Source: Reclinomonas americana ATCC 50394
Lineage: Eukaryota
DNA: 40,476 bases
Reading direction: 5' to 3'
Assembly (NCBI GenBank): GCA_048213135.1
Contig: PS015458.1
Location: 1 to 40,476 of the forward strand
This document shows, piece by piece, positions 4,721 to 39,048 of this stretch (its first letter is position 1; the number at the start of each line of letters is the position of its first letter). The translations under genes were made by a program, and so were the position numbers. A model generated the notes under the pieces. It was given only the letters and a program-made list of their open reading frames with translations, was not told where the DNA came from and made no database searches.

Positions 4721-6667
4721 CTAGTCAACATTCTCCGGCTTGTTCACCAGGTGCTTGTCCTCGTTCAGATTGTCGATCGCCAACAGCTCCTCCTCCGTCA
4801 GCTGGAAGTCAAACACCTGCAAATTCTCGATGCGGTGCTCCAAGTTCGAGGTGCGCATGATGGTGACTGCAACAGGCCGTCAGCGCCGGACGGGAAAGAA
4901 ATCGCACAAGAGAGATACACGCACTGAATCCGTGCTGCAAGCTCCAGCGCAGCAGCACTTGCGGAATGGTCTTGCCGTAACGCGCCGCCACCGAGTTCAG
5001 CACCCGTTCGTCCGAGTCGACCAGCTGCAAGGCAGGAATTAGCTGTGCACCCACACCAAACACACAAGCTGGCAGCAGTGACGCACATAGCCGTGTCCGA
5101 GGGCCGAGTACGCCGACACAAGAACGCCATTGTCGCGGCAGTACGTCACCAGCGGACTGCACATTTTAATAAAAGGGCGAGAGTTAGATTGCGCACTCCC
5201 CTCTTTCTCTCACACACTCCCTCCCTCTATCCTTCCCTCCTCCCCACACTCACCGCTGCGTCAGCTTCGGGTGAATCTCCACCTGATTGATCGCCGGCGG
5301 AATGGTGCAGTGCGCCATCAGCTCCTCGAGGTGCTTGATGGTGAAGTTGGAGACGCCAATCGAACGCGCACTGCGCCAACGACAAATGAGCGATTACTTG
5401 CCACCTTTCTGTCTCCCGTTCTCCCACGTCTCACTCGCCTCCGGCTCCACTCGCCTCTGTCTCCACCCGCCCCTGTCTCCACCCGCCCCTGTCTCCACCC
5501 ACCCCTGTCTCCACCCGCCCCTGTCTCAGCTCGCCTCCTCACCCGCCTCTGCTTCACCCGCCTCTTTGTCTGTCTTACGTTCTTTCCGTTTCCTCTCCCT
5601 CCCTTATCTCCTCCCACTCCTCTCCTTCTCCTCTCCCTCTCCCCTCCTCTCCCCTCCCCTCCCTCTTTGCGTGTGCGCTTCCTCACCGCCCACTGTTGTA
5701 GATCTCCTCCATGGCGCGCCAGGTGTCGCGGCGAAGCGCAATGTTGTCAGGCGGACTCGTAAACATCTGCACAATCTTCCACCTACAAGAAGTCAATACG
5801 AGACAGACATGCAGGAACGACGCGAAAAGAGCGACGCACTGCGGCTGCGGGCCTGCGGTTCCACGAACATATACAGTTATGTCAATAACTTCTCTTCATC
5901 GTCCCACCCCTCTTCAACCCTCGATCACTCACCGGGGAAGTGCACCAAGAACAAGTCAATGTAGTCGAGCCCGAGGTTGGTGAGCGACTTTTCGAACTCT
6001 TCCAGCGTCTCCTGGTACCTGCACGACACCATAAAGAATGCGTCAACCTCGGGCATTCAAAGCACGGAGAAGAACACCGACTTACCCCATGCGATCACGC
6101 AAGAGCTTGGTGACGATAAAGAGCTCCTCGCGCGGAACACCCGAGTCGCGAATGGCACGGCCGACTGCACACAACCAAAGGTTGAGAGAATCATTCGGTG
6201 CACACGACCGTCGAAACGCACCTTGATCCTCGTTGCCGTAGTACGTGGCCGTCTGTTGAAGCCCGCGTGCGACAGTGAGTCTCACAAGCGGAACTGAGAG
6301 AGAAAATGAAAAAGCAGCCGCAACATCAATGTGTCGGAAGCCGAGACGAATGGCGCTCAACTGCGTAGCGCGCGTCAGCGTCGGTGGAGAAACGTGTCGC
6401 AGAGCCTACTCACCACCGACTCGTAGCACTCGTCGCCCTTGATCTCCCACACTCCGTGCGCAAGAATCGGGATCTTAACCTCCTGTCCATCGACACTCGC
6501 CTGCTTCAATGTCACTGTCGGAATGGGCGACACGAGCACTCCACCCGGCGGCTACACACTGCGTGAGAAACCAACGAGTGGCGGCGAGCAGAAAAGGGCG
6601 CACATCACCAAACCTTGGACGAGCTCACGCCTCCGGCGACTCCCTGCGGTGCGATTCCTGTCGACAT
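4721..6667 (-). CDS. Aldo-keto reductase (AKR1/AKR5-like)
   Basis: Splicing 11 introns yields [81 protein letters not shown] and [14 protein letters not shown]. The catalytic D/Y/K/H tetrad is present. Stop TAG at 4721-4723. Confidence 0.95.
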
Positions 6668-7089
6668 GGTGCGCTCTCTTTCTCTCGTAAAGAATGATCG
6701 TAGGGTGCGATCCGAGCATGGACAGGCGAATGCACTGCGCTGCTGGTCATGACGAGGGCTGGGCGGACAAGTAGTACCTCAGCGCGCCCTGCGGACTCGG
6801 CACGCAAGAAGGGAGAGAGAGAGAGAGAGAAAGGGTGGCGTGCAATACAAAGCAGAGTGCGGCACGGATTGACTGAGTAGAAATTTGATCCCGAAGAGGA
6901 CCGAAGAATGCTAGATTCTTGTCAAGACCGGTCGCGCCGTCATGACTTGCGCGACGCTTCCCTCTCACAGCCAGAATAAACAGCACGAAGATAGAACACA
7001 GAGCATCGTGGCACGAGATGAAAGAAGCCACAAACTAAGACCATGCTGTGCCCTAGCACAAGAAAGATTCAGTCTCAAGTTTTGTGAGA

Positions 7090-7720
7090 GCACTGTCTGC
7101 TCCTGCATTTTCTCCCGGATCATCGCCGCTCTTCGTTTCATCGGGGTTTTCTGTGTGTGCATTCTGCCTACCCCTGCATTCGTACTTCACTCCTTCGGGG
7201 TCTTCTGTGTCGTGCAATCTGCCTGCTCCTGCATGCCAATCAGCTTCTACCTTGCCTGCCAACTCTTCCCCATTTCTTCTCGTCGCTCATCTGGTGCAAG
7301 TTCTCTGCCTGCTCCTGCAGTCGTGTATCTCGCCAGCCTGCTTCTACCTTTACTTCACACTCTATGCTTCTTCGGCTCCGCCTGTCTCCTGCATTCGCGC
7401 TGTCGCCAGTTTCTCCTTCGTTCCTTACTCATTGTTTCTTCGGGGTCTTCTGTGTCGTGCAATCTGCCCGCTCCTGCATTTAACTAGCTCACTTGTTTCT
7501 ACCATGCCTACCAACTCTTCCCCCAATCGTCTTGCTCATCTGTTGTGTGCGCGCTGCCTGCTCCTGCAGTCGTATCTCCTACCTTCCCCACTCTTCGTTT
7601 CTTCTCAGCCATGGTTCTTTCTGCTCCAGAATTCGTATTATCGCCATTGCGTTTCAACCGTCACCCCTTCTCTTCGTTTCTTCTAGAGTGTGCTCTTCCT
7701 TCTCCTGGAGCATCATCGCC
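7090..7720. repeat. Degenerate intergenic tandem repeat (~55-60 bp subunits within a ~245 bp duplication)
   Basis: TCGGGGTCTTCTGTGTCGTGCAATCTGCC(T/C)GCTCCTGCAT occurs at ~7196 and ~7440, with a diverged copy at ~7141. The block ~7241-7333 recurs at ~7495-7583. CTGCTCCTGCA recurs throughout. Confidence 0.65.
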
Positions 7721-7882
7721 AATCAGCCTCTAGTTTGCCTCCTATCTCTTCTCCCATTTCTTTCGTTCATCTGCCACACAACCTCTGCTCTTCCACTGAC
7801 AAAGTCCTTCAAACGCAACTTTCAATTTGCCTCTACACAAAAAAGAATCACTGCTGCTGCACTATTGCTACGGGCGACGGCA

Positions 7883-8475
7883 CTACATCTGCCGTTGCAC
7901 AAACATGACCATCGAGTCGTTCTCGATGCCCAGCGACCCCAGGTTGGCCGTATCCGGCGCCAATTCGCGTCCTCGGAACACGAAGCGGATGCTACTTGGG
8001 GCGACATTCCCGGTGCGCAGTCGATCCACCGAACGCACAAACACTGTCGTCGCAAGTATGAGTCTCAAGCAACTGCCACGGAGGTGGAAAAAACGAGAAA
8101 CGCAACACGTCTTGAAGTCGAGCAGCGTGGACGACAGTTGCGCAGAGACTGTACACTCGCGCTTGAGATCAACGTCATGGTGAGCGGGGGGAAAGAGTGG
8201 AACCGCCGCACCTGCGTGCACAGTGGCGCCTTCGCGCACTCGCACATTCACAGTGGCGTTACTGGCAGCTGCCGCGGGCGCAGCACTGGCCGCACTGGCC
8301 GACGGCCCGGAACTCGATCGCAGCTGAGCGACCTCTTGCTGCAGTTGGCGCTCCCTGCTCTGACTCTGCTCCAGCTGCTGCTGCAACTCGCGCTCGCGTG
8401 CTCGTCCTTGCTCCACGGCTTGCTCCAAGGCGGTCTGCGCAAAACGCGAAGGGGGTGAGAGATCTGCATCAAATG

Positions 8476-8574
<99 letters not shown>

Positions 8575-9384: not shown

Positions 9385-9524
9385 TCTCTTCTGTCTCCAG
9401 CGCGAACCAACACGTCGTTCGCAGGACATCCTTGTCTTTCGTCTTCCATTGAGAAAGGCACTTGCAGGATCCGTAAACCTGGTACGAGCACGCATTGTGT
9501 CTGTACTGTGTGTGTTGCCAAGGG

Positions 9525-10075: not shown

Positions 10076-13000
10076 TTATTTCGCACTCGGCACCAGCAAG
10101 AAGGAGCTGACGTAGCCGATGCCCTTGACTGCGCACAGCCCCCCCCCAAATTCGTGAGCAGACTCCCTCACATTACAGCTCCACCACCGTCTCTCACCTT
10201 CCACAGTCGACGCCTCCACCTCGAACAGTCCGCGGACGTGTCGATTCACCGACTGCACACATGGACGAGTGAGCGGTCACGAAAAGCAGCGAACTCTCCC
10301 CCTCACACCTGTTTCTTATCTCCCCCACTCACCTCGCTGAGTTGTATCCTGTTCATCGGCGCCGAGCTCTCCATGCGCGACGCCATGTTGACCGAGTCTG
10401 TTGCACGGCACCACCAGTAAGACAACAATTCATTCACCAAAAACAAACAACTGCTGACTTGACGACCACGTCCAACCATAGTACATCCTCACAACACCGG
10501 TCTTGTGGGCAGCGGAAGGTTTTCTTGTTCTTCTTGTTCTTGTTCTTGTTCTTCTTGTTCTTGTTCTTTTTCTATTCTTGTTCTTCTCCTCCTCCTCCTC
10601 CTCCTCCTCCTCCTCCTCCTCCTCCTCCCGTCCTCCTCCTCCTCTTCCTTCTCCTCCTTCTCCTTCTTCTTTCTTCCTCCTTCCTCTTCCGCCTCCTCAT
10701 TCTTCTCCTCCTCCTTCTTCTGCCCCCTCTCTCCCCCTCCCCCCTTCCTCTCTTTCTCACGCACCACCATACATGTCAAACGTGCGAATGAGACCCGCCA
10801 CAATGCCCGACGTCACTGGACCAGTGTTCAGACCCATACGGAAGTCAATCTCCAATTGATGCTGTGCGAGGCGACGATTTCAGCAGCTGGGCACACAACG
10901 CATCTGGTGCATCATGCTCACCTCGCGACACAGCTGCAAAATGGCGTGCCTGGCATCCAACGCAAACTCCACCATGGCCGTCGCATGATCATGTCGCGGA
11001 GCGTACATGCCCGAGACAGCAAGGTATGCCGATCCTGTGCGTCGAGTCTCGATTGAGAAGCGCGCGACACAGACCGTTGCGTACAGACAAAGGAGACTCA
11101 CCAATAGTCTTCACTCGCTCCACAAGGTGCTTGCGCACCAGTGCATCAAACGCACTCATCGCGAGGTGCAACACGTCGACTTTCTCACGCAGACTCACCA
11201 CTTCTGCGCTCAGGATAACAGAAAAAGGAGAGATCAGCAATGGCCGACACAAGCGGCAGCGAAAGCAAGACGAACCACGAGTGGAGGCGCGTCGCACAGA
11301 GACCACCTTGATGAACAAACAGGTGACCTCCTTGTGGAAATCACAGAATGTTGTCTGCTCATCGTCCGCTTGCTGTGCACGACGCAAGTGGTGAGTGTCC
11401 AAGGACAGCAATAGCTCAAAGATCATCACCAGGCACTCACCACATCCAGGATATCCCTTGCGGTGCTCATTGATTTCGCTGTCAGCTGCTCTAGTGCCGC
11501 GGCAGGGAACGACAGTCGAAGAAGCTGTGTTGCAAGGCAGATGAGCACGCAGAGCCGATGAACCACTCTCCTTTATCGATTGTCACACCTGCTGCAGTCG
11601 CTCGTTCGCCTCACGCTGCACATTGACACGCTGCGCCAGCAAGTGCAATTCCGAGACACGAACCAGCAGACTTGATTCTCCCTGGTCAGTGACCAGAATA
11701 CCGCGCACGAGCACACGGACGCTGTCCAACCGACCAACACACAGCTGTCAGCACTTTGTGTACATACACTGCAAAGCTACTATTACATGGAGACGCAACA
11801 GGTGACCATCCTTTCGCTGCACCTCGGCCTCCACTGTCGTCTCAGACATCAGCTCCGACCGCGTCATCGGTCGCAACATGTCCTCGACAGTCAATTGTTG
11901 AGAGCCTGCACTCGTGTCAGACAGGCATCTCCACATAATCTCACGCAACCAGCCAACTCACCGACAACCTCTTCGACCGAATACCCCAACACTCGCGTGA
12001 CCGACATGTTGCACCAGCGAATCCTGTCGTGCTCGTCGACCAACAATATCTGTGTGGGTCATAAATTGTGAGTTGTCCGTGCAGCCACACGAGCTCCACC
12101 CCCCCCCCCCCCTACTCTCTCCACGAAACTACATCGCTGCTCGTCGACAGCATGCCATTCATCCGGTCAATCCTCTCTTCGTAGTCGGCGCGCACCTCGG
12201 CCTCGTTCTTGTCGCTGTGCATGACGGCGCACAGGGAGCGTTGACCGCCAACCGTCACATCCGCCACATGGTACGCAATGGGGATCAGCGTGCCGTCCTT
12301 GCGCAGACCCTGGACCGCGCGGGCACTGAACGCACACAAGGATATGCGTCAAAAAGCAAGTTCCAGAATGCGAAGGGATGAGATGTAAAAAGCTGGAAGA
12401 CACCTTTGCAACCCGCTACGCTCATTGCGCGCCAAGTACGCTTCGACGTAGCTGTGTGAGCGTGTGAGAGAGTGAAGTCAATATACAGTCGCAAGATGCC
12501 TGCCATCATTGGCACGCAACGAGTGGTGGCGCTCCGAGTGCGGTGCCGGCATGAGCTGACGCACATTTCGACCGATCAACTCAGCCACGGTGGGATAGCC
12601 AAACAAGTCCAGCATCGCCTTGTTCACTTGCTGAATGGTGCCTGACGTGTCCGTCACAACCACCGCCTCCGGCATACTCGTCACCATCGACAGTGTCTGA
12701 TACATGGCCATGAGCGATCGGCTCTGAGTGGAACCAAAGACTGCGCGCACTCACCGTATCATGCATGCGACGCGCTTCGGCCTCCGCTGCCAGTGCCGCC
12801 CCACAATCTCGTAGCATGGCAGCGAAAAGAAGACGGCCGTCAACATGAATTTCCATCACAATCAGTCGAATGGGCACATCGTGACCCTGACGATGCTTCG
12901 CCTGTGGCGCGTATGCGGTGAGATACCATGAAAAAGAGAACTTTTCTGACACATCATTGCTTACCACAGTGGTACGCTCCAAGCGGAAAGACGAGCGTGT

Positions 13001-16000
13001 CGTCGAAGTGTTGACCTGCTGCAGCAATCGGCTCATGTAAACGTCGTGCGCAGCGTGAATGTGTGGCGGAATGATGGTCTGCGATTCGTGTCACGGAGAG
13101 TGAGAATTGATGGCATCACCACCAATGAGCCGTTGTGTGCAGTACCTTGACACTTGAGCCGACGATTTCGTCGGACGTGTAACCAAGCATGCGGGTAAAT
13201 GTCTTGTTCACAGACTCAACTGTGAGATCCTCCGTGGCGATAACCATTCCGAAACCTATCGCAGATGTCAGAAACAAAACTGGAGAGAGCACAAAGCGAG
13301 AATGATCAAAAAAACGCAACTTTGTGTCAATTCTTTCAACATGTGCTCGCTCTCGTTCAGCTTCTGATTCAGCGTAATCGACACCAGCAGCGACTCTGAC
13401 GAAGGTGCGCACGTCAGTGATGTGCGCATAAAAAAACAGGAAGTGGTGGTCACTTGGAGCGCAACGAGGAAGCAGTGACTGCTGCAATTCGGGAACCAAG
13501 CTGATGACATCCACAGACAGTCCTGCAATGACTCCACGGAGGAAGCGCAGCTCCAGATCACAAGTGCGAAGCAGTGGTGCAATCAACAGCCAGGATCCGA
13601 GAGCGGCCACCACGAGACCGAGTCCCAGCAGAATCTGACCGCCGACGACGAGTTTTGTCATGTAGTCTTCGTAGGTGCCACTGTATAGCTGCATGTAGCG
13701 AGTCAGAATGTATGGCACTAGATATCGACAAGATAATAACTCACTTCCGCTGACTCATCAAAGAGAGCATGCACAACTGGCTGAGCGGCCAACAGGAACT
13801 CCATTGAATCCATTTCCGCACTCGTCACGGGAGGCCCGCGCTCAGCCACAGCGAGACCGGTGGCAATCATTTTCTCAACCTGTTCACATGCACGATGCGT
13901 GAGATGGTGACAGTGACGGAGTAAAGCACACAGGCGACAAACTTACCAACGACTCAATCGGCGCGCAATCCACATCGACCCGCCACACTGGAGTCACATT
14001 GCCGCCGCGCTCATCAACCCGGCAGCGCGCACCATACAACATCGAGTGCTGCAAGGCATCATCTGTCGACGAGAAGCCGCTGCTGTCGATCACTCCAAGA
14101 ACGGCCCTTGCATCGTTACTTGCCTGATGCGCGGGTGTCAAAACGATGAACGACGATGCNNNNNNNNNNNNNNNNNNNNNNNNNNNNNNNNNNNNNNNNN
14201 NNNNNNNNNNNNNNNNNNNNNNNNNNNNNNNNNNNNNNNNNNNNNNNNNNNNNNNNNNNNNNNNNNNNNNNNNNNNNNNNNNNNNNNNNNNNNNNNNNNN
14301 NNNNNNNNNNNNNNNNNNNNNNNNNNNNNNNNNNNNNNNNNNNNNNNNNNNNNNNNNNNNNNNNNNNNNNNNNNNNNNNNNNNNNNNNNNNNNNNNNNNN
14401 NNNNNNNNNNNNNNNNNNNNNNNNNNNNNNNNNNNNNNNNNNNNNNNNNNNNNNNNNNNNNNCGCGTGCCTCGGTGTTCAAATACATCCAGAACAGAGTG
14501 CGCAACATTTCGGTCACTCTCCGACATGTCGAGATATGTGAGGTACTGCTGCTGCAGCTTGAGACGCATGGCGGCAGCTTCCTTCTTTGGCACAAGCCGA
14601 CACGTCACCAGTCCGTCGCGCAGTCTGCGGCGCACCATGAACAGCGCCGGCACGAAGAGGCAGACGAGGAAACCAACGGCGAAACTGCATGGTAGAAGTC
14701 AAATAGTTAGCAACGTTGCTGAACAGTCGCAACATGCGGAGTAGCAAGCAGAAACGCACCCAGCAGCCACGCCCACATACACCCACAGCAGAGAACTCGC
14801 GTTCGCCGCTTCCTCGATTGTTTGGTCAATCATGTCGTTGCACACTTCCAGCCATGCGCTCCGTGCTCGCAGGCTGTTGCGTCCGGCACTCTCGATGAAT
14901 GCCGGCTGCCGCAAAGCAGGGGTACCCGCTTGCGCAAGAGAACGTGAGGCATACAGCTGCATCGAGAGCCGTATCAGTGTTTGCACAGCGAAGGTGCACT
15001 CATGAAGCAGCAGCGGGTACCGACCGTCAGAGAATCACTGTGATTCACAATCACATCCAGGCTGTGCTTCGGTCGCACCACCATGTTGACCTTGGGCACC
15101 TCGAACTGCGCCTCGAAGACATTCTGCATGGCGGCCTCGCTGTCCAACCAGCTCCAGTCGGAGTGCAGGACTGCAAGGGCATGGTGCGACGTGGTAATGT
15201 TGGTGAGGATGCGATCTCGAAAGACATCGACTCGCGCGCCGAACGAGGACGGCGAGTCCTGCTTGGCGTACTCGTGCATCTGCAGCGCCGAGAGGCTGGC
15301 CAATGTCGCATCGATGCTACACACCGAGAACACAAACGCGGTCAGATAATGCCATATACAGCACATGAGCGCCGACCGTCCACACCTGGCATCGACAACA
15401 ATCTCGAAAATTGTGCGCCTGCCGAGCGTATCTTGCACAGTGGTGATTGTCAGGACGCCGACAAAGATGAGCACAACACAGAGAGCACCAGCGGTAAGCA
15501 GCAGGGCCCAGTTGGCTCGAGTCACTGCCACAATCTGTGAATGGGGGAAAGGGGGAGAAAAAACTGTTGGTCACCAACGAACAATCGCACACACAGTACA
15601 ATGAGTGTGACTGAAACCTTTTCGGCGGCAATGATGCGCCTGACAGTGCTCGAGTTGGAGTATTCACTGGCGGCAAAAGACTTGGAGTGACACGAGGCAC
15701 TGCAACGAACGGTCAGTATAGATTGCATCATGAGAGGCATTCTTTTGACTCACCTGTCTCCGTTGGACGACGCACAGCGACTGCCCGAATCGCTTCCACG
15801 GCCTCGAGCGTCTCGATTGGGAACTATCTCGCAAAGTGCAAATGTTAGCGAGCGCCACACTAATTGGATGTAGATAGACGCAACTCTGAGGGACGATGCG
15901 AACACTCGACTTCATGTTTGCGTGCTGCGCAACGAGAGCGAGTGAGCGACACATCAGCACCAAGTTATAACCCAGGTGACCGACCTTGGAAGCCGTACGC

Positions 16001-22648: not shown

Positions 22649-23682
22649 TTACCTCTTTGGTCGCCGAGCACGCACTCGGTTCGACAAGTGCCGTGCGCGA
22701 CGCAGGTTTGTCGCCAGCTCTCCCACAGACACCAACAAAGCCTCTGCATCGGCCGGAGACGCTTCTGTATCCTCGCTCGCCGGATCGTGCCCCACAACCG
22801 CACTCTCCACCTCGATCAGCATATCAGTCAGCCCCTGCAACACCTGCGTGCCATTGCGCGCACGTGACACCGTGTCCTCCATGTGTCGGATCTGGTCACT
22901 GGCCGCAGCGTACTGCACACCAGAAAAAAGACGCGCGCGTTGGAAGAGGCAGACAAAGAGAGAGGAGAAGATCGAGTTGTCCAACCTGCTTCTTCAACAC
23001 AGCCAATCGCTCTCGCAACTCGCGCTTCTCCCGCTCGGCTTGCGCCACTGCTCGCGACACCATGCGGTAGTCCATCAACGCAGTGCGCTGCGCAGTGTGT
23101 CAGCAGCACGCATGCAAGGAAAGGAGAAAGAGGAGGAAAGGGCAGACCATGTCTTCAGTCATTGCTGCGAACTGGTGCACCAGATGTCGCAACTCGGGGA
23201 ACTCCTGCAGTCTGATGTGACAGTGAGCAGAGGAGGGGAAGAGGCACGGGGAGAGAAGAGGAGGAGGAGGAGGAGGAGGAGGAGGACGAGGAGGACGAGA
23301 AGGAGGAGGAGGAGGAGGAGAAGAAGAAGAAGAGGAGAAGAGAAGAAGAAGAAGAAGAAGAATAGGAAGGAGGCGGAGGAGGAGAAGAAGGAGAACAAGA
23401 ACAACAAGAAGGATGAGGAGGAGGAGGAGGAGGNNNNNNNNNNNNNNNNNNNNAGAAGAAGAAGAGGCACAGAGAGAGCATGAGACACAGAGAGGAAGAG
23501 GCACAGAGAGAGCAGACTCACTCAGGTTGCACAGCCTCCTTGAACACCATCAACATCACATCGGCCTCAGTCAGCTCCTCCACCGCTCGCTCAGTGTGCC
23601 TGCGCTTGCGACTACTGCTTCCTTGCTCGTCATCATCTTCCCTCTCGCCAGCAGCAGCACCACTTCGCCTGCGCTTTCCCAT
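22649..23682 (-). CDS. Coiled-coil nuclear protein, possibly CENP-U/Ame1-like
   Basis: Four exons. MGKRRR (NLS-like)...ELTEADVMLMVFKEAV...FAAMTEDMRTALMDYRMVSRAVAQAEREKRELRERLAVLKKQY...LTDMLIEVESAV...RPKR*. The gene is supported by phase-consistent splicing; the family call is pattern recognition only. Confidence 0.65.
23256..23467. repeat. Intronic (GAG)n/(GAA)n tract with N gap
   Basis: Inside intron 1 of the coiled-coil gene. Confidence 0.9.
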
Positions 23683-23739: not shown

Positions 23740-24412
23740 ATGGAAGTTGGGCGCGGACTGTGTGCCGCCCTCGCCTTGTGCGACATCAACCTGTGCGTGC
23801 TCGCCGAGCAGCGCGCCAAAGTCGAGGCCGCAATGATGAGCAACCGAGCGTCCAAGGTGAGTGAGACACACGCGACGTTCTCTTTCTCAATGTGTCTCAC
23901 CTCTCTGCACAGAGGGCGGTTGACTCGTTCATTGCTGAGAGCTCTGCGATGCTGAGTGAGCTCAACTTGCCTGGAGTCGGCTTGTCGTACTTTATCGATG
24001 TCAGAGGCGAGGTGAAGAAGAGAGAGAGATAGAGAGACTCAGAGAGAGAGAGAGAGAGAGACTCAGAGAAGAGAAGAGAGAGAGAGTGACTCAGTGAGTG
24101 ATCATCATCTTCTTCTCCTCTTATGTTGTTTTGTTGTTGTTCTCAGAGACCACCGGCGACTGCGGAGGCACAGCGCACTGCTGTGATTCGTGAGAGTATG
24201 CCATTGGAGTACTCGACTCGAAAGTGTTGCGTCTTCTCTCACTCTCTTGCCTTCTCTCACACTCTCTTGCCTTCTCTCCTTCAGTCTCGACCTGCCTCCC
24301 TCACCCATTCAGTCCTTCTCCTTCCCTGTCTTTCTCCCCTTGGTTGCCTGTCTCCCTGTCGCACTCACTCTCAGACTGCATGCTTGCCTTCCAGTCTGTC
24401 TGTCTTCTGTCG

Positions 24413-24454
<42 letters not shown>

Positions 24455-28190: not shown

Positions 28191-29375
28191 TCACGCCTCG
28201 CCGTCGCCAATCTCAATGTCCACCACCACTGGCCGGTTGGTGAGAACGCGCGAGTCCATGCCACCGCCGACGTTGGCGGCGTTGACGAACAGGGTGTTGT
28301 CGTGCACCGCAACCCCGTAACCGGCATGAATGTGACCGAATACGTGAAGCAGCGGCTGCAGGTGCTTCACTGTCTGTGTGTGTGGAGAGTTAAGCGTTGA
28401 GTGAAAGGGAAGAGAGCATGCAGTGTGCCAACCTGGAGAACTCTGCATGTGATGTGGTCAGTCACTCGATCAACGACGACGAGGCTGGCGCAGAGGTACA
28501 ACGCAACTCTGGGCACCCGCCTGCTCGCCCACCGTCGCAAATGCCCTGCGGTGGTGGGTGCGTGATGAGGATCTGTGCGGAAATGGCCTGGGTGAGGAAC
28601 AGTGCCGGGGAGTTGCAGCTGAGAGGGATGAGAACACACATCGACACTGCCGGGCGCCGCTCCTCGTGGCAGCTGGTAAGGGGTGCCCTCTGTGGCGCGT
28701 CGTTGTGAGCAGTGGCACAATGGCATGCAAGCACAACGTCTCCATACCTGGTTGAAACGGCAAGCCAATGATCCGCACACCGTCGCACTCGACCGCCTCG
28801 TGATCCGTGTGCAACACGGCGGTGGCATTCGACAGCACCTCCCTCAAGCCCTCATACCCGCCCAGATCGAGATCCACATAATTCCGCTCGTGATTCCCGC
28901 AGATCACCACCTTGTGCTGGTGTGGCAACGTGCCCAGCCACTCGTTGAAGGCCACAAAGTGCGCCTGGCGTGACATGAGCGTGAAATCGCCTGCATGAAC
29001 GATCGATCGGTTTTCGGAACAGCGATCGATCGCAAACGAGCGAGACAACTGACCGGCGTGAACGAGGATATCGCCAGTCGGCACAGCGGCACCCAGCACC
29101 GACTCGAACTTGCCTTGCTGCGCGTGCGTGTCTGCACAGTTGTCTTTTGTGCAAAAATAGCATCGATCGCAAAAAAAGATCGCGATCAATCGATCGCAGC
29201 CCTCACCTGACACGCACACCACACGATGCCGACGTCGACGGTGATCGTGATCACCAGCATCATCCACCAGCGCGACACTGGCCTCTGCATTCACAGCGCA
29301 CGCATTGACAGTGCGCTGTCCGTAATCCGTAACTCGTGCGACGGATCCACGTTGCGCCACTTGAAGTGGTGGCAT
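28191..29375 (-). CDS. Calcineurin-like metallophosphoesterase (MPPED1/2, 239FB-like)
   Basis: Six introns. Motifs VVCVSDTH, DILVHAGDFT, FNEWLGTLPHQHKVVICGNHE, VDILITHPPP, GCPEVLQTV, LHVFGHIHAGYG and TLFVNAA. Stop TGA at 28191. Start could extend into the adjacent gap. Confidence 0.93.
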
Positions 29376-30107
29376 AGGCGGCGACGAGGAGGAGGAAGGC
29401 GCACTNNNNNNNNNNNNNNNNNNNNNNNNNNNNNNNNNNNNNNNNNNNNNNNNNNNNNNNNNNNNNNNNNNNNNNNNNNNNNNNNNNNNNNNNNNNNNNN
29501 NNNNNNNNNNNNNNNNNNNCAGTCGTGCGTGCTCTATCTTTAGTGCATTCTGTGTCGTTGTCTCTCTCTCTCTCTCGCTGCTTGTGTTTGCATCCATCTG
29601 CACGCTTCCCATCCTCTCCGTTCGCTCGTTCTTGCATTCCTTGTCTCTCCTCTCGGACACATACATACTCTCTCTTTTCTCTCTCCTCTCTCGCTTCCAA
29701 TGTGTTTCTAGCGTGTTTGGGTGTCCTTTCTCTCTCATCTCCTGAGTTCCTCTCTCCCTCGGTGTGTGCGTTCGCCTGTGCGTTTCTCCTTTCTCTTGCC
29801 CTCTCACTCGCACCCAACTTCCCTGCGCTTTCTCTGCTTGTAAGTGCATCGGGCTCGCTCTCTTTCTCTCTCCTCTGCTCGTTTGTGTCCATCTCTCTCG
29901 TTCCCTGTGTTTCTCCCTCTCCAATATACAGTTCTCCGTCTCTCTCTCTCAGCGTCTGTGTTTGTCTCTTTCTTTCTCGTTCGCATAATTCGATCTCGCC
30001 GACTCTCTTTCGCTCTTTCTTACTCCCCTTCTTTTCTCTCTCCTTCTTGCCTTTTCTCTTCTCTCTGCGTGTGTGAGTACCGCTGCTAATCGTGTTCCTT
30101 GTTGCAG

Positions 30108-33065
30108 CCTTTGACGCCCGCGCCAATCGCATCGTGGTGGCCTTCAAGGGCACCGACGGCATTCCCGACTACATTGCCGACATTGATGTGCTGAAGACGC
30201 AGCTGTGGGACACGGGTGCGTGGATGGAGGCTGGGATTTTGAGGCGTGGGAAGTGTGTGTTTATCTGATGCGCTGTGTATTGTAGGCGTCAAGGTGCACG
30301 AGGGCTTCCTGCGCTCGTATGAGGTGTGTGAGAGGGAGGGAGGGAACGAGGGAAAGGGAGAAGGGGGAGAGAGAGAGGAGGGAGGGAAGGAGGGAAAGGG
30401 AGGAAGGGGGGAAGGGACAGAGAGAGAGAGAGAGATAAGTACAATCTATTTGCGAGAGAGAATGTGTCGTGTATGCGTGCGACTTTATTTTGTGCAACGT
30501 GAGTGAAAGAAGGAAGGGAAGGAGTGAGGGAACAAGAGAGAAGAACAATCAGTTTGCGAGAGAGAATGTGTCGTGTATGCGTGCGACTTTATTGTGTGCA
30601 ACGTGAGTGCCTGTGTGACAGGGATGGAGAATTCTCTGACTGCTGTGCAGCGTTCACGCGCGCACATGCACGCTCTTCTACACTGTGTCTTATGCGCTGC
30701 ATTTCTCTTTATCGCACGAATCACTATTGTGTTCCGTTTGTGCGAAGAGTGTGTTGCAGCAGGAGGGAGGGAGGGAGATCACTTGTGTGTGCCATGAACA
30801 GTGTTATGTAGGAAGGGCGGAAGAGACTAATGTGTTTCCTGTCTTGCACTTGTGTATGTCACAGAAACTGTGTCATGATGTCTTCTTCCTGTGTGTCCTG
30901 AATAGGGCTTTATTTTCAACATCGATAGCACACTTTTAAACAGTATTAGTTGTAGAAGGGAAGCACACGAGACTTGTTGGCGATCACTGGTAGATGCTCA
31001 TTGTTGTGTGTGGATTAGTGAAGTTTCTATTTTTTGTAAAGCGAAGGGAGATTCACTTGTGTGACGACAGTGTTTTTTTGTGATTGCCATTTCTTACATG
31101 TGCGTTCCCCATTCTACAGGCCTGCAAGGACCAGTGGTACGCCGATTTCGACCGCCACAACCAGAACCACCCGAACGCACAGATTGTCGTCCTCGGGTTG
31201 GTGGACCGCTGGAGTTGCTCTCCACTTCTCTCGACACTCACAACATGCTTTTCTCCACGGCAGACACTCGCTGGGCGGCGCACAGGCGACGCTGGCCGCT
31301 GTGGATCTGACCTACCACCACCAGATTGATGTTGCGTTTCATACGAGTGTGTTTGTGTGCTGCTACTGCTGTTGCCGACATCTCCGTGTGTGCAGCCGAG
31401 CCGCATGATGGTGTTCACCTTTGGCAGCCCGCGTGTTGGCGCCGACAACTCGTTCTACCCGTTCTACATCAGCGAGATCCCGCTCGGACGCTCGTGGCGC
31501 ATTGTGCAGTTGCGTTTTCCGTGAATATTTTTGTTGCTTCTGCATTGTTGCTCACATTCCCGTCTCCACTTTGCAGCAACCACGACATTGTGCCTGGTGA
31601 GTGTGTGGGAGTGGAGGGAGAGGGAGAGAATGTGTTTAGTGCACACTGATCAGTGTGAAAGTGACGTTGGGAGTGAGTCAGTTGTTGTCGGGAGTATGTA
31701 AGTGAGTTCTTGCACGTGTATCAGTGAATGTGAGTGAGGCAGTGTGTGTCGGCGAGTATGCAAGTGAGGAGTGCAGTGCGATTCAGTGAGTGTGCAAGTG
31801 TGGGGTGAGTCAAATTGTGCGAATCGTCAAGTGAGCGTGCACGTGAGGAAGTGCGTGTTAGTGAAATGTAGGAAGTGCGTGTTGGAGGTGCAGAATGCGC
31901 GCCTGCCTGCGTGTCCGAATGCTCTCTCTCTCTCTCTGCACCAGTGTGTGCGCGTGGAAGGGTGAGAGTGTCCAACTGAGTGCTTGCACGTGTGTCAGTG
32001 AGTGTGGGAATGTGTGTTGGCAAGTATGCAAGTGAGGGAGTGCAGTACGATTATGTGAATGACCAAGTGAGAGAGCGCACGCGTATCAGTGCGAAATGCG
32101 CGCCTGCCTGCGTGGCTGTAATCTCTCTCTCTTGAAAAATGAGAGTCTCCGAATGAGTGCTTGCACGTGTGTCTGTGAGTGGGAGTGAGTATGTGTGTGT
32201 GAAAAGTATTACGGGAATGAGGAGGCGCACAATGTTCGCTTGTCAGCGTGTCTGTTTGTTGCTCGCTGCACGACTGTGTACGCGTGGAAGCGTGAGAGAG
32301 TGCCAGAGAGTGTCAGCGAGTGAGAGAGAGAGAGATTGACTGCACCCTGCATTGGGAAAATGTGACTGAGTGCTTGTTATTGTGCCCGATGATGCTGGTG
32401 CGCGTGCTGACTGTTTTCATTCCACTTCTCCCCCTCGCAGATGTGAGTTGGTCGCTGACAATACCGAGCAAAATAATTGTTCTTTCATACTAACAATTGC
32501 CATTGCAGCTGCCACCGAGCTACTTTAGCTTCGAGCACGTGCCGATCGAGGTGTGGTACAACGAGGTGAGTGGCATACATCAGTGCGGGCACAGGAAGCT
32601 CGCTCGTCGCTCATTTGCATTCTCAGGACAACACCGAGTACAAGGTGTGCGAGCCGACCAAGGACTGCGGACCTCGTTGCGTCTTATTCCCCCACGCACT
32701 TGCACTCTTGACACACTTGCTGACATTGCATGTGCAGAGATCAACTTGTCGTCGGCCGGTACGCTCGCCTCACTTGTTCTTTTCGTCTGCTCACTCTCAC
32801 TCTACGCTTGTATCTTGTCTGTGCAAAAAATATTACCCAACAGACCACCACTTCTACGTTGCGCACACGCCTCTCCTCACCGTTCGTGAAACACACACAC
32901 ACACACACGGCTCCCTCACTTCTTGTGTGCATTTGTTGATGCGTGCAGGTCGGTGTGCCGCTCGACTGTGGCCTCAAGCGCGTGCAGATCGACGACGGTG
33001 CCTACGTGCGCGCTCTGTCGCGCAACAAGTGGCGGTACAACTTGGCCGCCAACGCCGAGGAGTAG
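30108..33065 (+). CDS. Class 3 lipase (Lipase_3); 5' exon(s) missing, probably in gap 29406-29519
   Basis: Spliced motifs IVVAFKGT, VKVHEGFLRSY, VLGHSLGGAQATLAA, FTFGSPRVG, WRIVHNHDIVPDLPP, FEHVPIEVWY and ADHHFYVG give a complete Ser-Asp-His triad. Stop TAG at 33063-33065. Confidence 0.94.
30448..30609. repeat. Intronic ~57-bp direct duplication
   Basis: TTTGCGAGAGAGAATGTGTCGTGTATGCGTGCGACTTTATT(T/G)TGTGCAACGTGAGTG at ~30448 and ~30553. Confidence 0.9.
30898..31005 (+). repeat. Dispersed ~100-bp repeat, copy 1 (lipase intron)
   Basis: Aligns to 36516-36618; shared core GTTGTAGAAGG(G/A)AAGCACACGAGACTTGTTGGCGATCACT..AGATGCTCATTGTT. Confidence 0.9.
31700..32190. repeat. Degenerate tandem duplications in a long lipase intron
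   Basis: GAGT(G/T)CTTGCACGTGT recurs at ~31704, ~31978 and ~32155. AGTATGCAAGTGAGG and AATGCGCGCCTGCCTGCGTG each occur twice. Confidence 0.75.
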
Positions 33066-33389: not shown

Positions 33390-33536
33390 ATGCCGCCCAA
33401 GTTCGCCCCACCCCCGAAGCCGATCTTGACAACCTTCGGAAAAGTGGCCCAACCGCCGAATACTGGCGGCGGCAGGGGATGTTTCCCCACCAAGCCCACC
33501 CAGCCAAGCGTTGACATACTGCGAACATTCCGCTGA
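33390..33536 (+). CDS. Putative 48-aa Pro-rich microprotein (paralog A)
   Basis: MPPKFAPPPKPILTTFGKVAQPPNTGGGRGCFPTKPTQPSVDILRTFR*. Shares KFxPPxKPI and homologous upstream DNA with the ORF at 34087. Too short for the supplied ORF track. Confidence 0.5.
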   Translation: MPPKFAPPPKPILTTFGKVAQPPNTGGGRGCFPTKPTQPSVDILRTFR

Positions 33537-34086
33537 ATCGTTGAACCGCCACGTGCGAACGAGCCAGCGTCGGCTAACGAGAATACTTGCTTCGCAACGC
33601 CATCTCTCCACCACGCGTACGATTTCCCGTCCTTTGTTTTTTTTGAACATCTCAGTGTAGTCGTCAAAATCATGATCAACAGTCACGTGCACCATCAGTG
33701 TGTCTCGCGTTCACTTTTTGTGTACAACTGACCCGTGGTCGAGACTGTCCACACCACTGCCAGCTGCACCGCACAACTCCAGAAGGCTGCTTTCCTCCAT
33801 GCACATTATACTCCATGTACACAGAGACACTTTGCAGTCATCGATCGCGATCAGAACTACCAGTCGTGCATGCTGCGCATGCGCCATCATTGTGTTCGGC
33901 CAGCAGTGTATATGTGCGACTGGATCCAGCCACCAGCTTCCCCTCTCACCATGCGCGTCCCCGTATCCATCGGACACGCACAGATGATAGTTCGCGACTC
34001 CACGCCACACAAAACAGGAAAATTGCTGTTTTCCATATATTTGTTTTTTCTTTTGTTTGCCTTGTTGTGAGCCTTGACGAAAGAAT

Positions 34087-34269
34087 ATGAGTGGCCGCAA
34101 CGCTCCGAAGAAGTTCGTTCCACCGTCGAAGCCAATCGTGCGCGCACCAGCCACTCCTATCGTGCAGCGGCTGCCACCACCGCCGCCTCCACAGCCAAAC
34201 TTCCCGTTCACCAAAGCAGGTCTCATTGCTGGCGCAATCTGCGCCGCCGCGGATGTGCTGTTCAAGTGA
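34087..34269 (+). CDS. Putative 60-aa Pro-rich microprotein (paralog B)
   Basis: MSGRNAPKKFVPPSKPIVRAPATPIVQRLPPPPPPQPNFPFTKAGLIAGAICAAADVLFK*; homologous to the ORF at 33390. Confidence 0.55.
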   Translation: MSGRNAPKKFVPPSKPIVRAPATPIVQRLPPPPPPQPNFPFTKAGLIAGAICAAADVLFK

Positions 34270-34281
34270 TGGTGCTGTTGC

Positions 34282-34536: not shown

Positions 34537-34577
<41 letters not shown>

Positions 34578-35212
34578 TCTCATCCGCGAACTCCTCTGCG
34601 CATATGCATGCGCTTGCCTTCCTGACGATCGTGAAAAATGTATGACCACGTTTGCCCGCTGCGTACCACTGTGCACACACGATCAATCGTATCTCAGCAA
34701 GTTCGACGCATGCGTCTTGCGAGAGAGCTGTGCGCAGAGAGTCACTATGGACTGGCTGCTTATCGAAAATAGGCGTGCACGAGTGTACACTTTGCCGCGA
34801 CACTGCATGCGCACGCGCAGTTATTATGACGCCGACGGAACATCCTCACACAACGCACACTTGCAGTCGAAGAGAAACACTACATGACTGTGTGCATCCA
34901 GTGGCGTAGCAGGCAAGTGAATACAGGCAGACCTTGGTGACAGCTAGATCTCAATTCTGTATTGTCCGCGGCTCTGCTTTCTGCAAATCACGTTGACACA
35001 AGGAACCCTCGCTTGTCACGACACTGCGGCTGTAATTGCCGCACATCTGTACCAGCAAGGCTCGCCAGACTGGCTCTGTGAACATCAAACATGCCTAGGC
35101 CTGGATTATTTTTCCACGCTCTTCTTCTTTTCATTGTTGTCGGACAAAGAGAGTGGTAGAGCAGACAAGCAGAGTGAGCAGAGGAAGAAAGACTCGCTAC
35201 TGTCACACCGCC

Positions 35213-38200
35213 ATGTCCACGCACGGATCACCATCACGTGAGTCGCGTGATGACACAGGAGGTGCGTCGCATTGCTTCTTCAGTGTTTGTTTTTCAGTGA
35301 TTTCTGATCTGCGTTGCGTGTGCGATCACAGCAAGCGCAGCAGCTCTCTCCTCACCGGGCGGCAGCCAGCCGCGCAGTACCAACACTGACGAGTTCACTG
35401 GTGTCTCTCCGCACTGGCGTGCGCCCCCCATTGGTGAGCTCGAGCGTGATCCCAACGCCGCCAAACCACTGTCACCACCGCAGCGAGTTCTTCGATATCT
35501 CTCACACTGCGCTGCGTGTGACACGTTGCAGCTCCACCGAGTCCATCGAGCCCCCATCACCAGCCACAATCGCCCACCGTTCGCCGATACATGGTGCGAC
35601 GCTCGTATCGTTCTTCTTGCTGCTTGCATGCATACTTGTGTGTTCTCACTCTCGCTCATGACACTTGTAGGAGGCCAGTTACGACGACGACGACGACACC
35701 AGTACCATCCCCGAGGGATACCGATCACCGAAGATCGTGCCGAAAGATGCTCCCAACAGCAGCTTCATCACTGCCGAAGGCGGACTGTCGCCCACGCGCA
35801 TCGCATTCATGCATATGGAGCACCAGCAATACTCCGATGTCCACACTGCGGTGCGTACGACTCCCCCTCTTTCACAGGTGCACGATCGCTGATGTGAGAG
35901 CGCAGTTGTTGGACGCTGCGTCAGTCAAGTCGCAGATGAAGGGCTGCTGTACGAGAGAGGTTCTCTGTCCGCTTCCCTGTTTGTGCTGCAACTGCCGTTG
36001 CTGCACGAGCCCTTCAGCGGAGGAGGAGCAACAACAAGTTCCTACAGCGTATGAAGTGTTTACACTGCTCCTCCGCATTCTGCGCTTCTTCAAACCGGAG
36101 GGATGGCTCATCATCATCGCCATCATGGTCAGCTGCACCACAGTGGCGCTCTCACAAGTCGAAATCAAGCTCCTCGGCAATATCGTGACATCGGTGCAAG
36201 TATTGCTGCAGACCGTAGATGATCCAGGGTATGGCACTTATTACCCCCTCTTGCAATACATGCATTTGTTCAAAAATCTTATTTCTCGCTTTCGGCGCAG
36301 TCATCGAGAGGATGTCGACTGGTACCCCATCCGATACGACCTCTTCATGTGGGTGATTGTCATGTCACTGAACCAGATCCTCACGCAAGTCGGCGTCTTG
36401 CTCTTCCGCAGTACGCACAACAAGGTGAGGGAGCAGGAAACAAGTGCAGCGAACACGGGATTGACAAGGAAGCTTTCCTTCTCTGTTCTCCGCTCTTCTA
36501 CATCTAGATCTCGTACTGAATGCCTTATTCTCAACATCGATAATGCACTGTAAAGAGCACTGTTGTAGAAGGAAAGCACACGAGACTTGTTGGCGATCAC
36601 TAGCAGATGCTCATTGTTNNNNNNNNNNNNNNNNNNNNATTTCCTTCATTATTGCCATGTGCTTCCACTGCTCAAGACTCCTCAATCGGTATTTGTGTGT
36701 TCTCCTGGCCCATCCACACCGCTTGTTGGTGTTGTTGGTCCGTCTCCTCGTGTTCTCTTCCTGCCACTTTCTCGTTTTGTGTCCATCTCCGTCTTCGCTT
36801 TCACTCCCCCATCGTTGAATCCTTCTCCCTCACTAACTCTCTCTCTCTCCTCAGATTATTCTTCGTGCACGCTGCCGTTTGATGGACGTGCTGTTGTGCC
36901 AACCAATGTCGTTCTTCCAGACGGCACAACAGGGAGACTTGCTGTCACGACTGTTGCGTGGACGTAATTGTAATCTGCTGCTCTTCGTGATGACACCGAC
37001 GACACTGTTGATAATTTGCGCACACAGCATCACCAACATGGAGCAGCTGTGTGGCATTCCGAGCGCCCTGTTCTCATTCCTGCAGCCGATCTTCCTCTTC
37101 ATCACCAGCAGCATCCTCATGTTTAATCTTTACCCGGCGCTGACACTGGTGCGCAGCCGCATCACACATGCACTCTTCGCATCATCCACACACTCACCAT
37201 GCAGCACAGGGCTACTACGGCGTCTTCATCGTTCAGGTAGTGACCTCGGTGTACGAAGGCCGGTTGCTTGGCACTCGCAGCAAGGTCTGTGGCGCACAGT
37301 GTTGTCTCGCGAGCGCGAGTGACTGCATTAATTATCAACTTACTCACGCTCTCTCTCTGTCTCTCATGCTGCGCAGTTGTACTATGATGTTCTGTTACCC
37401 ACGCTTGCCATCGCACGCACATACTCCCATTCGTCGATGCTGACGGTGTGATTCCATGTGCAGACACAAGGTTCCATGACGAATGTGGCCGACGACATCT
37501 TGCGTCGCATTCGTGGCATTCGCAGTTGCGGGCGACAGCAGACCGAGTCGAATCGGTACTACGGCAGCTGCCGCGAGCACTACTACGTGGAGACGAGCAT
37601 GCTCAACGTCTCCATGGTCTGCTGACAGTAATGGCTTGCTCTCTGTTGCAGCTGTCGCAACTCATGCTGTGCTGAACAGTCATTCAATGTGGTCACCATG
37701 GTGGTTACCGGATTCATTGGGGCGTTCAGTCAGTTTGTGCTCACTTGGTCCGTGCTGCGTGCGGCAATCACCCTGGGCGATCAGACAGCCTACGGAGGTG
37801 AGTCTTGCCGCATTTCATGTGGTGCAAACTGCCTCCTCACTGTGATATTCAGCAATCTCGACGTCTGCATTGCACGCGGTGCAAACCTCCAGCGATTCAT
37901 ACTCGTCACTCATGCAGCAGCTCGGTGGTGTGGAGGACATCTTCAACCTGATGATGACAGCTCCAGGCGATGGAGTGAGTGAATTATTCAGTGGTAACTA
38001 GAGATAGATGACTGTTTCGTATATTGTTGGTGTGCCAAGGTCATTGTCGGCAAGATCTAGAGATTTGTGGCATTGTGTATTGTTGTGGTCTCTGACTTGT
38101 GTTTGCTGTTTGTGCGCACAGGAGGGCATTCCGGGAGTGACAAACATGGAGGCCACTGCACCGATTCCGCGCTCAGCCACTGGCCGTGTGAACAAGCCGA

Positions 38201-39048
38201 AGAGTCCCAAGGCAGCCATTCCACAGGCCGGAGAGCCGATCATTGTGATGCGCGATGTTTCGTACTCGTACGTCGTCCACAACAATGGCGCTTTCGGCTA
38301 CGGCGATTATGACGACGACGATGACGATGAAGAAGAAGAAGAAGCAGATGCCGGAACACGCCAGCAATTCCAGGTACGTAGCAGCAGCGTGCAACCGGCA
38401 AGCACGAGCACTTGTACAAATTCGCGCTTGTGCCAGATTTTGAATCGAGTGTCGCTCACGATCCGTGCCGGTGATCGAGTGGTGATAAGTGGCCCGAGCG
38501 GCGGCGGCAAGTCCACACTCGTCTGCCTCTTCATGCGGTACTACCTCGTATCCAGCGGCTTCCTGAGTCTCGCCGGGCACACGCTGTCGTCAACAGTTGC
38601 GTCAAACACAACAACAGTGTCAGCAGCAGCTCACCACTGCCCCTCTTGACCTCACGAACGCAGATGAGTGGCTCGGAGGTCCGACAGCTGCGCCGGCGTA
38701 TCTCATTCGTGCAACAAATGTCGGCGGAGCCATTCCTCCTCAGGGCCACCATTCGCGACAATATCGTGTACGGCACTCCTCCCGAGGACCGAGTGCCGAC
38801 ACTCGCCGCCGTTCGTCGTGCAGCGCAACTGGCCTCCATCGACCAGGACATTATGCAGATGAGTGACGGGTACAACACTCTGCTGGACGTCTCCGTGGCC
38901 AGCCAGGGTGGCAGCTTGAGTCCCGGGCAGCAGCAGCGGTGAGTGTGTGTGAGGGGTGGGAGAGAGAAGAGAGGGAAGAGTTGGATGGAGGGAGAGATGG
39001 GAGTGCAAACCAAGTGCCTTCAACAACAACAACAACAACAACAACAAC

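Follow-up and report, generated by a model that had tools for sequence, protein, structure and literature searches.

The locus and its gene models

We analysed a single window of 40,476 bases (contig PS015458.1, positions 1 to 40,476 of the forward strand) and the donor (5′) splice sites of the GT-AG introns in its modelled genes. Alongside ordinary donors, these genes use a second class, here called shifted donors, which begin with GTT and carry G at intron position +6 and a base other than G at +5. The window has ∼55% G+C, N gaps and abundant (GA)n/(CT)n tracts, and it reads as nuclear DNA from an intron-rich eukaryote, with introns mostly of 55–95 nucleotides (nt). Throughout, a slash marks the exon–intron boundary, H stands for A, C or T, a single coordinate names the first base of an intron and strands are given as (+) or (−).

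Six genes were recognised from Pfam matches to single exons: an aldo/keto reductase gene (4721–6667(−)), a gene for a multi-PAS protein with a class III cyclase domain at its end (10076–18246(−)), a poly(A) polymerase gene (19387–22375(+)), a Myb-repeat protein gene (23740–27123(+)), a class-3 lipase gene (30108–33065(+)) and an ABC transporter gene (35213–39742(+)). Pfam was searched exon by exon, and many of the matches fall short of the gathering score, which is to be expected of pieces of 20–60 amino acids (aa). A metallophosphoesterase-like gene (28191–29404(−)) was identified from motifs by eye and from phmmer homologues; none of its 5 exons has a Pfam match, and a word-based protein search with the 80-aa exon at 28749–28988(−) returned no match. 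A protein search with the poly(A) polymerase found no relative above 60% identity. Many spurious long open frames run through the GC-rich DNA of the window.

The models come from a dynamic-programming (DP) gene finder whose donor score, a mixture of two matrices plus background, spans +3 to +9 of the intron. Donor scoring never uses the exon base; therefore, the base at −1 cannot bias the choice of site by DP. The DP output (98 introns) was then curated by hand using three-frame translations, which removed false in-frame introns at 19668 and 39187 and added introns that DP had missed, e.g. those at 29053, 38374 and 36953. The curated set contains 109 GT-AG introns, and every final model translates without a stop.

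Two classes of donor differ at the exon end

The curated donors fall into three groups. In the 74 ordinary donors, where +3 is not T, the last exon base is G in 63 cases, A in 6 and T in 5, and the consensus is G/GTG[AC]GT. The 9 GTT donors that have G at +5 all follow a G. The 26 shifted donors, which make up 24% of the introns, have A (13), T (8) or C (5) at −1 and never G; their consensus is H/GTT[GT]CGT. The strict motif GTT[GT]CG is present in 23 of the 26, the other three being GTTGAG, GTTGTG and GTTCTG. Position by position, the shifted class has T at +3 in 26/26, G at +4 in 21, C at +5 in 23, G at +6 in 26 and T at +7 in 22, of which the +6G, like the absence of G from +5, holds in all 26 by definition of the class.

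The difference at −1 is pronounced (G in 63/74 ordinary versus 0/26 shifted donors, Fisher p=1.2e-15). It is also seen in the uncurated DP set (41/64 versus 1/24, p=1.6e-7), where the sole shifted donor after a G is the one at 11949(−). Within the GTT donors the positions are fully linked, every −1G occurring with +5G and every −1H with +6G (p=1.4e-8). Put the other way round, none of 72 exons ending in G carries a shifted donor, whilst the 37 exons ending in another base divide into 26 with the shifted and 11 with the ordinary form. Within these 37, donors of the GCGT/TCGT type are mostly shifted and those of the GAGT type mostly ordinary.

An earlier note on this DNA had proposed that shifted donors occur only after non-G exon ends, that GTT donors after G keep +5G, and that the rule runs in one direction, as non-G ends can also take ordinary donors. 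All of the sites it cited are in the sequence where it placed them, including A/GTGCGT at 5839(−) and A/GTACGT at 25845, two of the non-G ends with ordinary donors. The association of the −1 base with +5G or +6G, which the note had suggested testing, emerges within the GTT donors of this window with the p value of 1.4e-8 given above. The GTT donors after G bear the claim out and include four that the note had not listed (6613(−), 16774(−), 11275(−) and 22985(−)). It had counted 26 shifted donors between 6324 and 38602, two coordinates that coincide with the first and last shifted sites of our models in that range; we recovered 25 there and could not match the 26th, and our own total includes an additional site at 214.

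A probable shifted U1 register

The most probable reading of these donors is that U1 small nuclear RNA (snRNA) pairs one base further downstream than usual while cleavage stays at GU. Shifted introns would then be ordinary GT-AG introns, cut before their GT. The first G of the intron would pair in place of the exon-end G, +2U would be a tolerated mismatch, and +3 to +7 (UGCGU) would take the roles of +2 to +6, with +6G paired to C4 of U1. By analogy with human precedent, U1 would be the reader and a later step would hold cleavage at GU. That later step would be the one of U6, U5 and Prp8.

Our own criterion for this reading, which is not one from the literature, was the composition of the exon side. 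A shifted register predicts that exon positions are moved by one base; a bulge, or a reader working in the cleavage register, predicts no movement. The base at −1 of shifted donors (A 13, C 5, G 0, T 8) resembles that at −2 of ordinary donors (A 34, C 23, G 8, T 18; chi-squared p=0.25), with A at 50% versus 41% and G at 0 versus 10%. Likewise, −2 of shifted donors (G in 10/26, 38%) resembles ordinary −3 (G in 28/83, 34%; p=0.85) and differs from ordinary −2 (G in 8/83, 10%; p=0.005). Exon-side composition is thus displaced by one base in the shifted class, which favours the shift. In register terms, G occupies the −1 position in 98 of the 109 donors (63 + 9 + 26).

We also calculated nearest-neighbour energies with the U1 5′ end as printed in PMC4856993, which may not be the U1 of the host itself. 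For A/GUUGCGU, the shifted register is the best (−2.5 kcal/mol, versus −0.6 bulged and 0 canonical). The ordinary form A/GUGCGU reaches −2.4 kcal/mol in the canonical register, and G/GUGCGU reaches −9.2. For G/GUUGCGU, the best register is the canonical one, at −2.8 kcal/mol. After a G, the ordinary form is therefore far stronger (−9.2 versus −2.8) and wins; after another base, the two forms are nearly equal (−2.4 versus −2.5), which together with the advantage of the ordinary form after G accounts for the one-way rule and the 26:11 split. H/GTGCGT and H/GTTGCGT differ by one intronic T, and the two forms could interconvert with the mRNA unchanged.

Several observations weigh against this reading. 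The mean energy of the shifted donors is low in every register (shifted −0.7 (−0.73), bulged −0.4, canonical 0.0 kcal/mol) beside the −7.1 of ordinary donors. The shifted register is the best one in 12/26 cases, and the other 14 are predicted to be stable in no fixed register. In the 13 cases with a U- or C-ended exon, shifted and bulged pairing come out alike in the energy model. The base at +5 is C in 23/26 shifted donors and A in 1/26, whilst the matching position of the 74 ordinary donors has A 37, C 23, T 11 and G 3; GUUGAGU pairs better with U1 than GUUGCGU (−6.9 versus −2.5 kcal/mol), yet +5C prevails. This C runs counter to simple U1 pairing and leaves room for a dedicated reader or for a restriction imposed by U6. 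A scan of the window with Rfam gave no RNA gene at gathering score, hence no U1 to read.

The sample and the models also bear on the argument, in the same direction. The data are from 13 modelled gene pieces in a single 40-kb window, and all junctions are inferred from frames, protein profiles and a single alignment with homologues. Hand curation sometimes favoured the G-ended site among in-frame options (at 16774, 16583, 24012, 1437, 26421, 15024, 29206, 12403 and 11961), and it thereby raised the share of −1G in ordinary donors from 64% to 85%. At one uncertain candidate, A/GTTGCGT at 28501–28508(−), the frame needs an 8-nt exon (28440–28433), and a GCxxL motif conserved in homologues (phmmer alignment) rather favours reading through 28507(−).

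The earlier note had arrived at the shifted pairing from the −1 base and had proposed comparing U1 duplex energies in the canonical, shifted and bulged registers. The part that stands is that exon composition follows the register, without selection for −1G, and that the shifted register is the best for A/GUUGCGU. The part that does not follow simply is the +5C, together with the weak duplexes, the 14 donors stable in no fixed register and the 13 U- or C-ended cases.

Absence of G before shifted donors

It is established that the shifted class is free of selection for an exon-end G. Whether G is in addition excluded depends on the null, and the proper null for the −1 base is neither 25% nor the 85% of ordinary donors. 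Over the whole window, GTT is preceded by G in just 128 of 973 cases. If the shifted exon end corresponds to −2 in the register, G is already rare there and no special ban on it is needed: with G at ordinary −2 in 7/74 donors (9.5%), 0/26 is expected with p=0.075. Similarly, unused copies of GTT[GT]CG are preceded by G in only 3/37 cases, versus 0/23 for donors with the strict motif (Fisher p=0.28). On present data, 'never G' is a consequence of the shifted register and base composition rather than a separate law; the pattern claimed by the earlier note is there (0/26), while the exclusion of G does not follow from it.

A strict exclusion, in which an exon-end G is actively incompatible with a shifted donor and G/GTTNCG is absent genome-wide, is unlikely on these figures, and the sample is unable to separate 0% from ∼10% G. 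A possible reason for such an exclusion would be that GG draws the two C residues of U1 into canonical pairing and so disrupts recognition; the energies agree, in that the canonical 3-bp duplex of G/GUUGCGU (−2.8 kcal/mol) is predicted to be better than its shifted one (−1.8). Besides the 0/26 itself, the one G-preceded copy with donor potential also fits. This copy, G/GTTGCGT at 11943–11950(−), shares a frame with the acceptor at 11906. Its site at 11949(−) (G/GTTGCGTGA), though, falls 12 nt into an intron that begins with a perfect ordinary donor, G/GTGAGT at 11961(−), its in-frame rival.

Other possible readers of the GTT donors

Instead of standard U1, a dedicated reader might match GUUGCGU in the cleavage register, as a variant U1-like snRNA or a protein serving a separate intron class. 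From +3 to +7 the shifted class varies less than the ordinary class does, and such a reader would account for +5C, unlike the standard U1 5′ end. Variant U1 snRNAs do exist in human (PMC3561869 and PMC10870369). If true, this would be a further 5′ splice-site recognition system beside standard U1 and U11. We consider it improbable, for three reasons. Exon composition is displaced by exactly one base, as a shift of the same reader predicts. Every shifted subtype has an ordinary counterpart after G: GTT-GCGT and GTGCGT, GTT-TCGT and GTTCGT, GTT-CTGT and GTCTGT, GTT-GTGT and GTGTGT, and GTT-GAGT and GTGAGT. Finally, intron lengths (median 68 versus 67 nt) and the spread of phases are alike in the shifted and ordinary classes, as expected if one spliceosome serves both.

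Less probable again is a bulged U, with U1 in its ordinary register (+1G paired to C8, +2U to A7), one U bulged out and +4 to +7 acting as +3 to +6. Registers with a bulge at +2/+3 are described at human sites (PMC4856993, legend of Figure 1), and the U- and C-ended shifted donors score equally in bulged and shifted pairing (−0.6 kcal/mol). However, a bulge, like any reading in the canonical register, leaves the exon end facing C9 of U1, where −1G would be expected at least as often as in ordinary donors (63/74), and it is found in 0/26. Moreover, −2 of the exon tracks ordinary −3 rather than ordinary −2, and the A-ended sites are better shifted than bulged (−2.5 versus −0.6 kcal/mol).

The junctions of shifted introns

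It is very improbable that the GTT[GT]CG sites are artefacts of gene modelling with the true junctions elsewhere, even though the models were built on frames, profiles and alignment, earlier versions of the gene finder merged or split genes or skipped exons, 11/26 shifted donors have some in-frame alternative, and the junction at 28507(−) is doubtful: about ten junctions are supported by Pfam profile positions or homologue alignment, retention of 20/26 shifted introns would shift the frame or bring in a stop, and many genic copies of the motif sit where a donor is needed. In this last comparison, 23 of the 44 sense-strand copies of GTT[GT]CG inside modelled genes lie exactly at frame-restoring positions with an acceptor after them, mostly 53–92 nt downstream and in one case 538 nt away.

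The GT…AG boundaries keep the frame in 26/26 shifted introns, with the cleavage point inferred from the protein. In 21 of the 26, the exon downstream begins with a base other than G, and 15/26 shifted donors have no in-frame alternative of positive ordinary-donor score within 45 nt. Profile continuity is exact at 19789, 25543 and 31331, within 1–2 positions at 25261, 25714 and 36953, and rough at 38596; the poly(A) polymerase model aligns with six homologues without a gap at 19789, 19961 and 20411. Our conclusions are unchanged after dropping the doubtful 28507(−), 28432(−), 37389 and 15617(−).

Two other accounts of the junctions were rejected. Cleavage after the G, so that the intron starts with TT and ends one base later, leaves introns without a common 3′ dinucleotide and at 25543 would swap out a conserved Ile. 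U12-type introns are marked by [AG]TATCCTT-like donors together with a corresponding branch-site consensus; 0/26 shifted donors start with GTATCC or ATATCC, and the lengths and acceptors of shifted introns are like those of other introns.

The individual sites are as follows, gene by gene. The site at 214, A/GTTGAGT (213–220(+)), lies outside the 6324–38602 range; it is the only frame-consistent GT for the intron 214–305 and has no in-frame alternative. In the aldo/keto reductase gene, T/GTTGCGG (6318–6325(−)) belongs to a 36-nt exon, the next exon opens at position 52 of Aldo_ket_red, and the junction restores the family motif HID/TA (by eye). T/GTTGCGT at 8100–8107(−) fits the frame with the acceptor at 8044, although removal of its 63-nt, stop-free intron is not forced.

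Seven further sites fall within the multi-PAS gene. A/GTTGCGT (15878–15885(−)) is in a run of four strong frame-keeping sites, and its intron must be removed. The frame fits, removal is required and there is no in-frame alternative at both C/GTTGCGC (13459–13466(−)) and T/GTTGCGT (11793–11800(−)). A/GTTGCGT (13314–13321(−)) fits the frame with an acceptor at either 13280 or 13256, with a PAS domain beginning in the next exon. At C/GTTGCGT (12514–12521(−)), the upstream exon stops at PAS position 55 and the frame is kept to an RKDG motif. At A/GTTTCGT (12123–12130(−)), the downstream exon runs from PAS position 14 and removal is required. The seventh is the G-preceded copy at 11943–11950(−) discussed above, which the curated models do not use.

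In the poly(A) polymerase gene, the exon end at A/GTTTCGT (19574–19581(+)) fits the homologues, and the alignment at 19575 hints that the acceptor is 12 nt beyond 19627, at an AAG (provisional coordinate). The junction at C/GTTGCGT (19788–19795(+)) is gap-free against the six homologues: the preceding exon reaches PAP_NTPase position 95, a 31-aa exon plus a split codon (32 residues) fills 96–127, and the next exon starts from 128. At A/GTTGCGG (20410–20417(+)), the junction WARR/RGVYSN is likewise gap-free, and the next exon starts from PAP_central position 16.

In the Myb-repeat gene, at T/GTTGCGT (24225–24232(+)), the split codon T/GG is the first Trp of a Myb-like repeat and removal is required. 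A/GTTGTGT (24845–24852(+)), of shifted type, is placed on the basis of frame, and its intron holds a stop. T/GTTGCGT (25035–25042(+)) is in frame with an acceptor at 25098 or 25128 and has no in-frame alternative donor. Over the junction at A/GTTTCGT (25260–25267(+)), the Myb profile is continuous within 2 positions, and retention would add 24 aa inside a Myb repeat. At A/GTTTCGT (25542–25549(+)), Myb_DNA-binding ends at about position 25, the split codon supplies 26 and the next exon continues from 27. At A/GTTGCGT (25713–25720(+)), the profile is continuous within 1 position and there is no in-frame alternative.

In the lipase gene, Lipase_3 stops at about position 91 before T/GTTGCGT (31330–31337(+)) and resumes from 92 in the next exon, whilst the junction at A/GTTGCGT (31508–31515(+)) yields RIVH/NHDIVP (motif by eye). 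C/GTTGCGT (32675–32682(+)) fits the frame, with removal required and no in-frame alternative. C/GTTGCGC (32857–32864(+)), also without an in-frame alternative, follows a 15-nt exon (32844–32857) that, with a base from the preceding exon, encodes DHHFY (motif by eye). In the ABC transporter gene, T/GTTGCGT (36952–36959(+)) joins ABC_membrane positions 103, 104 and ∼105, and retention would add 25 aa. T/GTTCTGT (37388–37395(+)), of shifted type and assigned with moderate confidence, comes after a 12-nt exon that can itself be skipped in frame. At A/GTTGCGT (38595–38602(+)), ABC_tran passes from ∼52 to 53 with 4 extra residues, and removal is required.

GTT donors with +5G, ordinary donors and rejected candidates

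The GTT donors that keep +5G are placed on similar evidence. G/GTTTGG (6607–6614(−)) is frame-consistent, as is G/GTTCGT (11269–11276(−)), within the region of the cyclase domain. G/GTTTGT (17754–17761(−)) and G/GTTGGA (22979–22986(−)) fit the frame and their removal is required. G/GTTGGC (16768–16775(−)) is in frame and was preferred over C/GTCAAG, 6 nt upstream. After G/GTTTGC (19960–19967(+)), the next exon starts from PAP_NTPase 128 in a gap-free alignment, and over G/GTTCGT (21541–21548(+)), PAP_RNA-bind runs 24, W (25) and 26. At G/GTTGGT (31196–31203(+)), the codon GG/A followed by HSLGG gives the lipase motif GHSLGG, and Lipase_3 position 70 is the first residue of the next exon. G/GTTGGC (28426–28433(−)) is uncertain and hinges on the 8-nt exon.

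The exception to both registers that the earlier note had pointed out, G/GTTTCAG at 15611–15618(−), is present at 15617(−), but an in-frame rival 27 nt downstream, T/GTGCGA at 15590(−), fits the donor consensus better. Of the ordinary donors after a non-G end, A/GTGCGT (5833–5840(−)) depends on a 5-nt exon (5844–5840) needed for the VHFP frame, and A/GTACGT (25844–25851(+)) carries the Myb profile over the junction as 31, N (32) and RTDVQC.

Several candidate donors were rejected. That at 22014 lies inside the intron 21961–22052, which homology favours; 35313 is just 18 nt ahead of an acceptor; 37525, 23019(−) and 23193(−) are exonic; 7819(−) is beyond a stop codon; 16552(−) is in the wrong phase; and 28737(−) was replaced by G/GTATGG at 28747, on a conserved LPRG motif.

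Two observations concern ordinary donors with +3C. Those with GTCGGT or GTCTG[TCG] are always G-preceded in the models (15984(−), 15024(−), 16383(−), 23147(−), 25401(+), 37285(+) and 37617(+)). One of them, the weak G/GTCTGG of the intron 25401–25468(+), is followed by a perfect GTGAGT 10 nt into the intron and by GTTGCG 17 nt in; the weak upstream donor is used because the frame and the Myb repeat require it.

Other features of the window

Micro-exons of 2, 5 and 8 nt (32441–32442(+), 5840–5844(−) and 28433–28440(−)) are apparently needed for frame or motifs. In the lipase, an 'AT' flanked by an acceptor and a GTGAGT donor is required for DIVP-D-LPP; the 5-nt exon of the reductase is needed for VHFP; and the 8-nt one is in the metallophosphoesterase-like gene. 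These could reflect stepwise or nested splicing, or errors of assembly.

The 844-nt lipase intron at 31597–32440(+) is made of repeated units rich in GTGAGT-like decoy donors (families D2, D4 and D7). A 57-nt stretch of 95% identity (family D6) is shared on the (+) strand by introns of the lipase (30949–31005) and the ABC transporter (36562–36618, adjoining an N gap), and may be a mobile element or a dispersed repeat. Downstream of a ubiquitin-like gene, at ∼7080–7800, units of ∼100 nt are repeated, each closing in a core like CTGCCTGCTCCTGCA (by eye); Tandem Repeats Finder did not list this repeat at score 150.

At 3003–4181(−) there is a single-exon gene of 393 codons with a signal-peptide-like start, for which a word-based protein search found no relative. 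Two short proline-rich open reading frames, at 33390–33540 and 34088–34270(+) and some 700 nt from each other, start alike (…PPKF.PP.KPI…) and are possibly paralogous small genes.

Comparison with known systems

A U1 register one nucleotide downstream has been reported for certain 5′ splice sites in human (Roca and Krainer 2009, as described in PMC4856993 and PMC11162779). These sites resemble the shifted donors in having a GU-AG intron, all U1 pairs one base downstream, +1G in place of −1G, G at +6 instead of +5, and cleavage at GU. In frequency the two differ: all non-canonical registers together make up ∼1.5% of human sites (PMC11162779), whereas the shifted class here, predicted from sequence, is 26/109 (24%). 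The consensus GUUGCGU, with its near-fixed +5C, is also unlike that of the human shifted sites. A limited search of open-access text gave no report of such a donor class in any organism, with the motif words returning unrelated papers. What appears new is not the shifted register, which is known and rare in human, but its apparent frequency here.

Should the pattern extend to the whole genome, roughly one intron in four would separate the register in which the 5′ splice site is recognised from the register in which it is cleaved. With such introns one could test directly what fixes the cleavage site once U1 has departed, how heavily the exon-end G weighs for U1 relative to later steps, and whether a one-base bulge is tolerated by U6. 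On the practical side, gene finders with a single donor matrix will mis-call these introns, as our first DP runs did.

Bulged U1 registers have reportedly been described by Roca in 2012. The shifted donors share with bulged and asymmetric-loop registers (Tan et al. 2016, PMC4856993) the look of sites with one nucleotide inserted between +2 and +5 (PMC11162779). They are unlike them at the exon, where a bulge should leave −1G favoured, while here −1G is found in 0/26 and exon −2 is displaced by one.

A further parallel is the 'seesaw' compensation between −1G and +5G (Burge and Karlin 1997; Carmel 2004; Wong 2018), as summarised in PMC8283771. In both cases, two conserved guanines at a fixed spacing carry recognition, the first of them here being the register −1G of 98/109 donors. 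In the seesaw of that summary, however, a lost exon G is offset without a change of register, by stronger positions within the intron, whereas here it would be offset by moving the whole register.

Finally, the shifted donors have implications for U6. In the cleavage register, +4 to +6 (GCG) would be unable to pair with the ACAGAGA box of U6. Because of this, the shifted donors may need U6 to shift as well. That U6 can pair one base out is seen at the STAT3 tandem donor, where its register is shifted by one nucleotide (PMC11162779). The STAT3 case, as given in that source, involves one human gene with tandem sites 3 nt apart; the shifted donors, by contrast, are a class found across the window.

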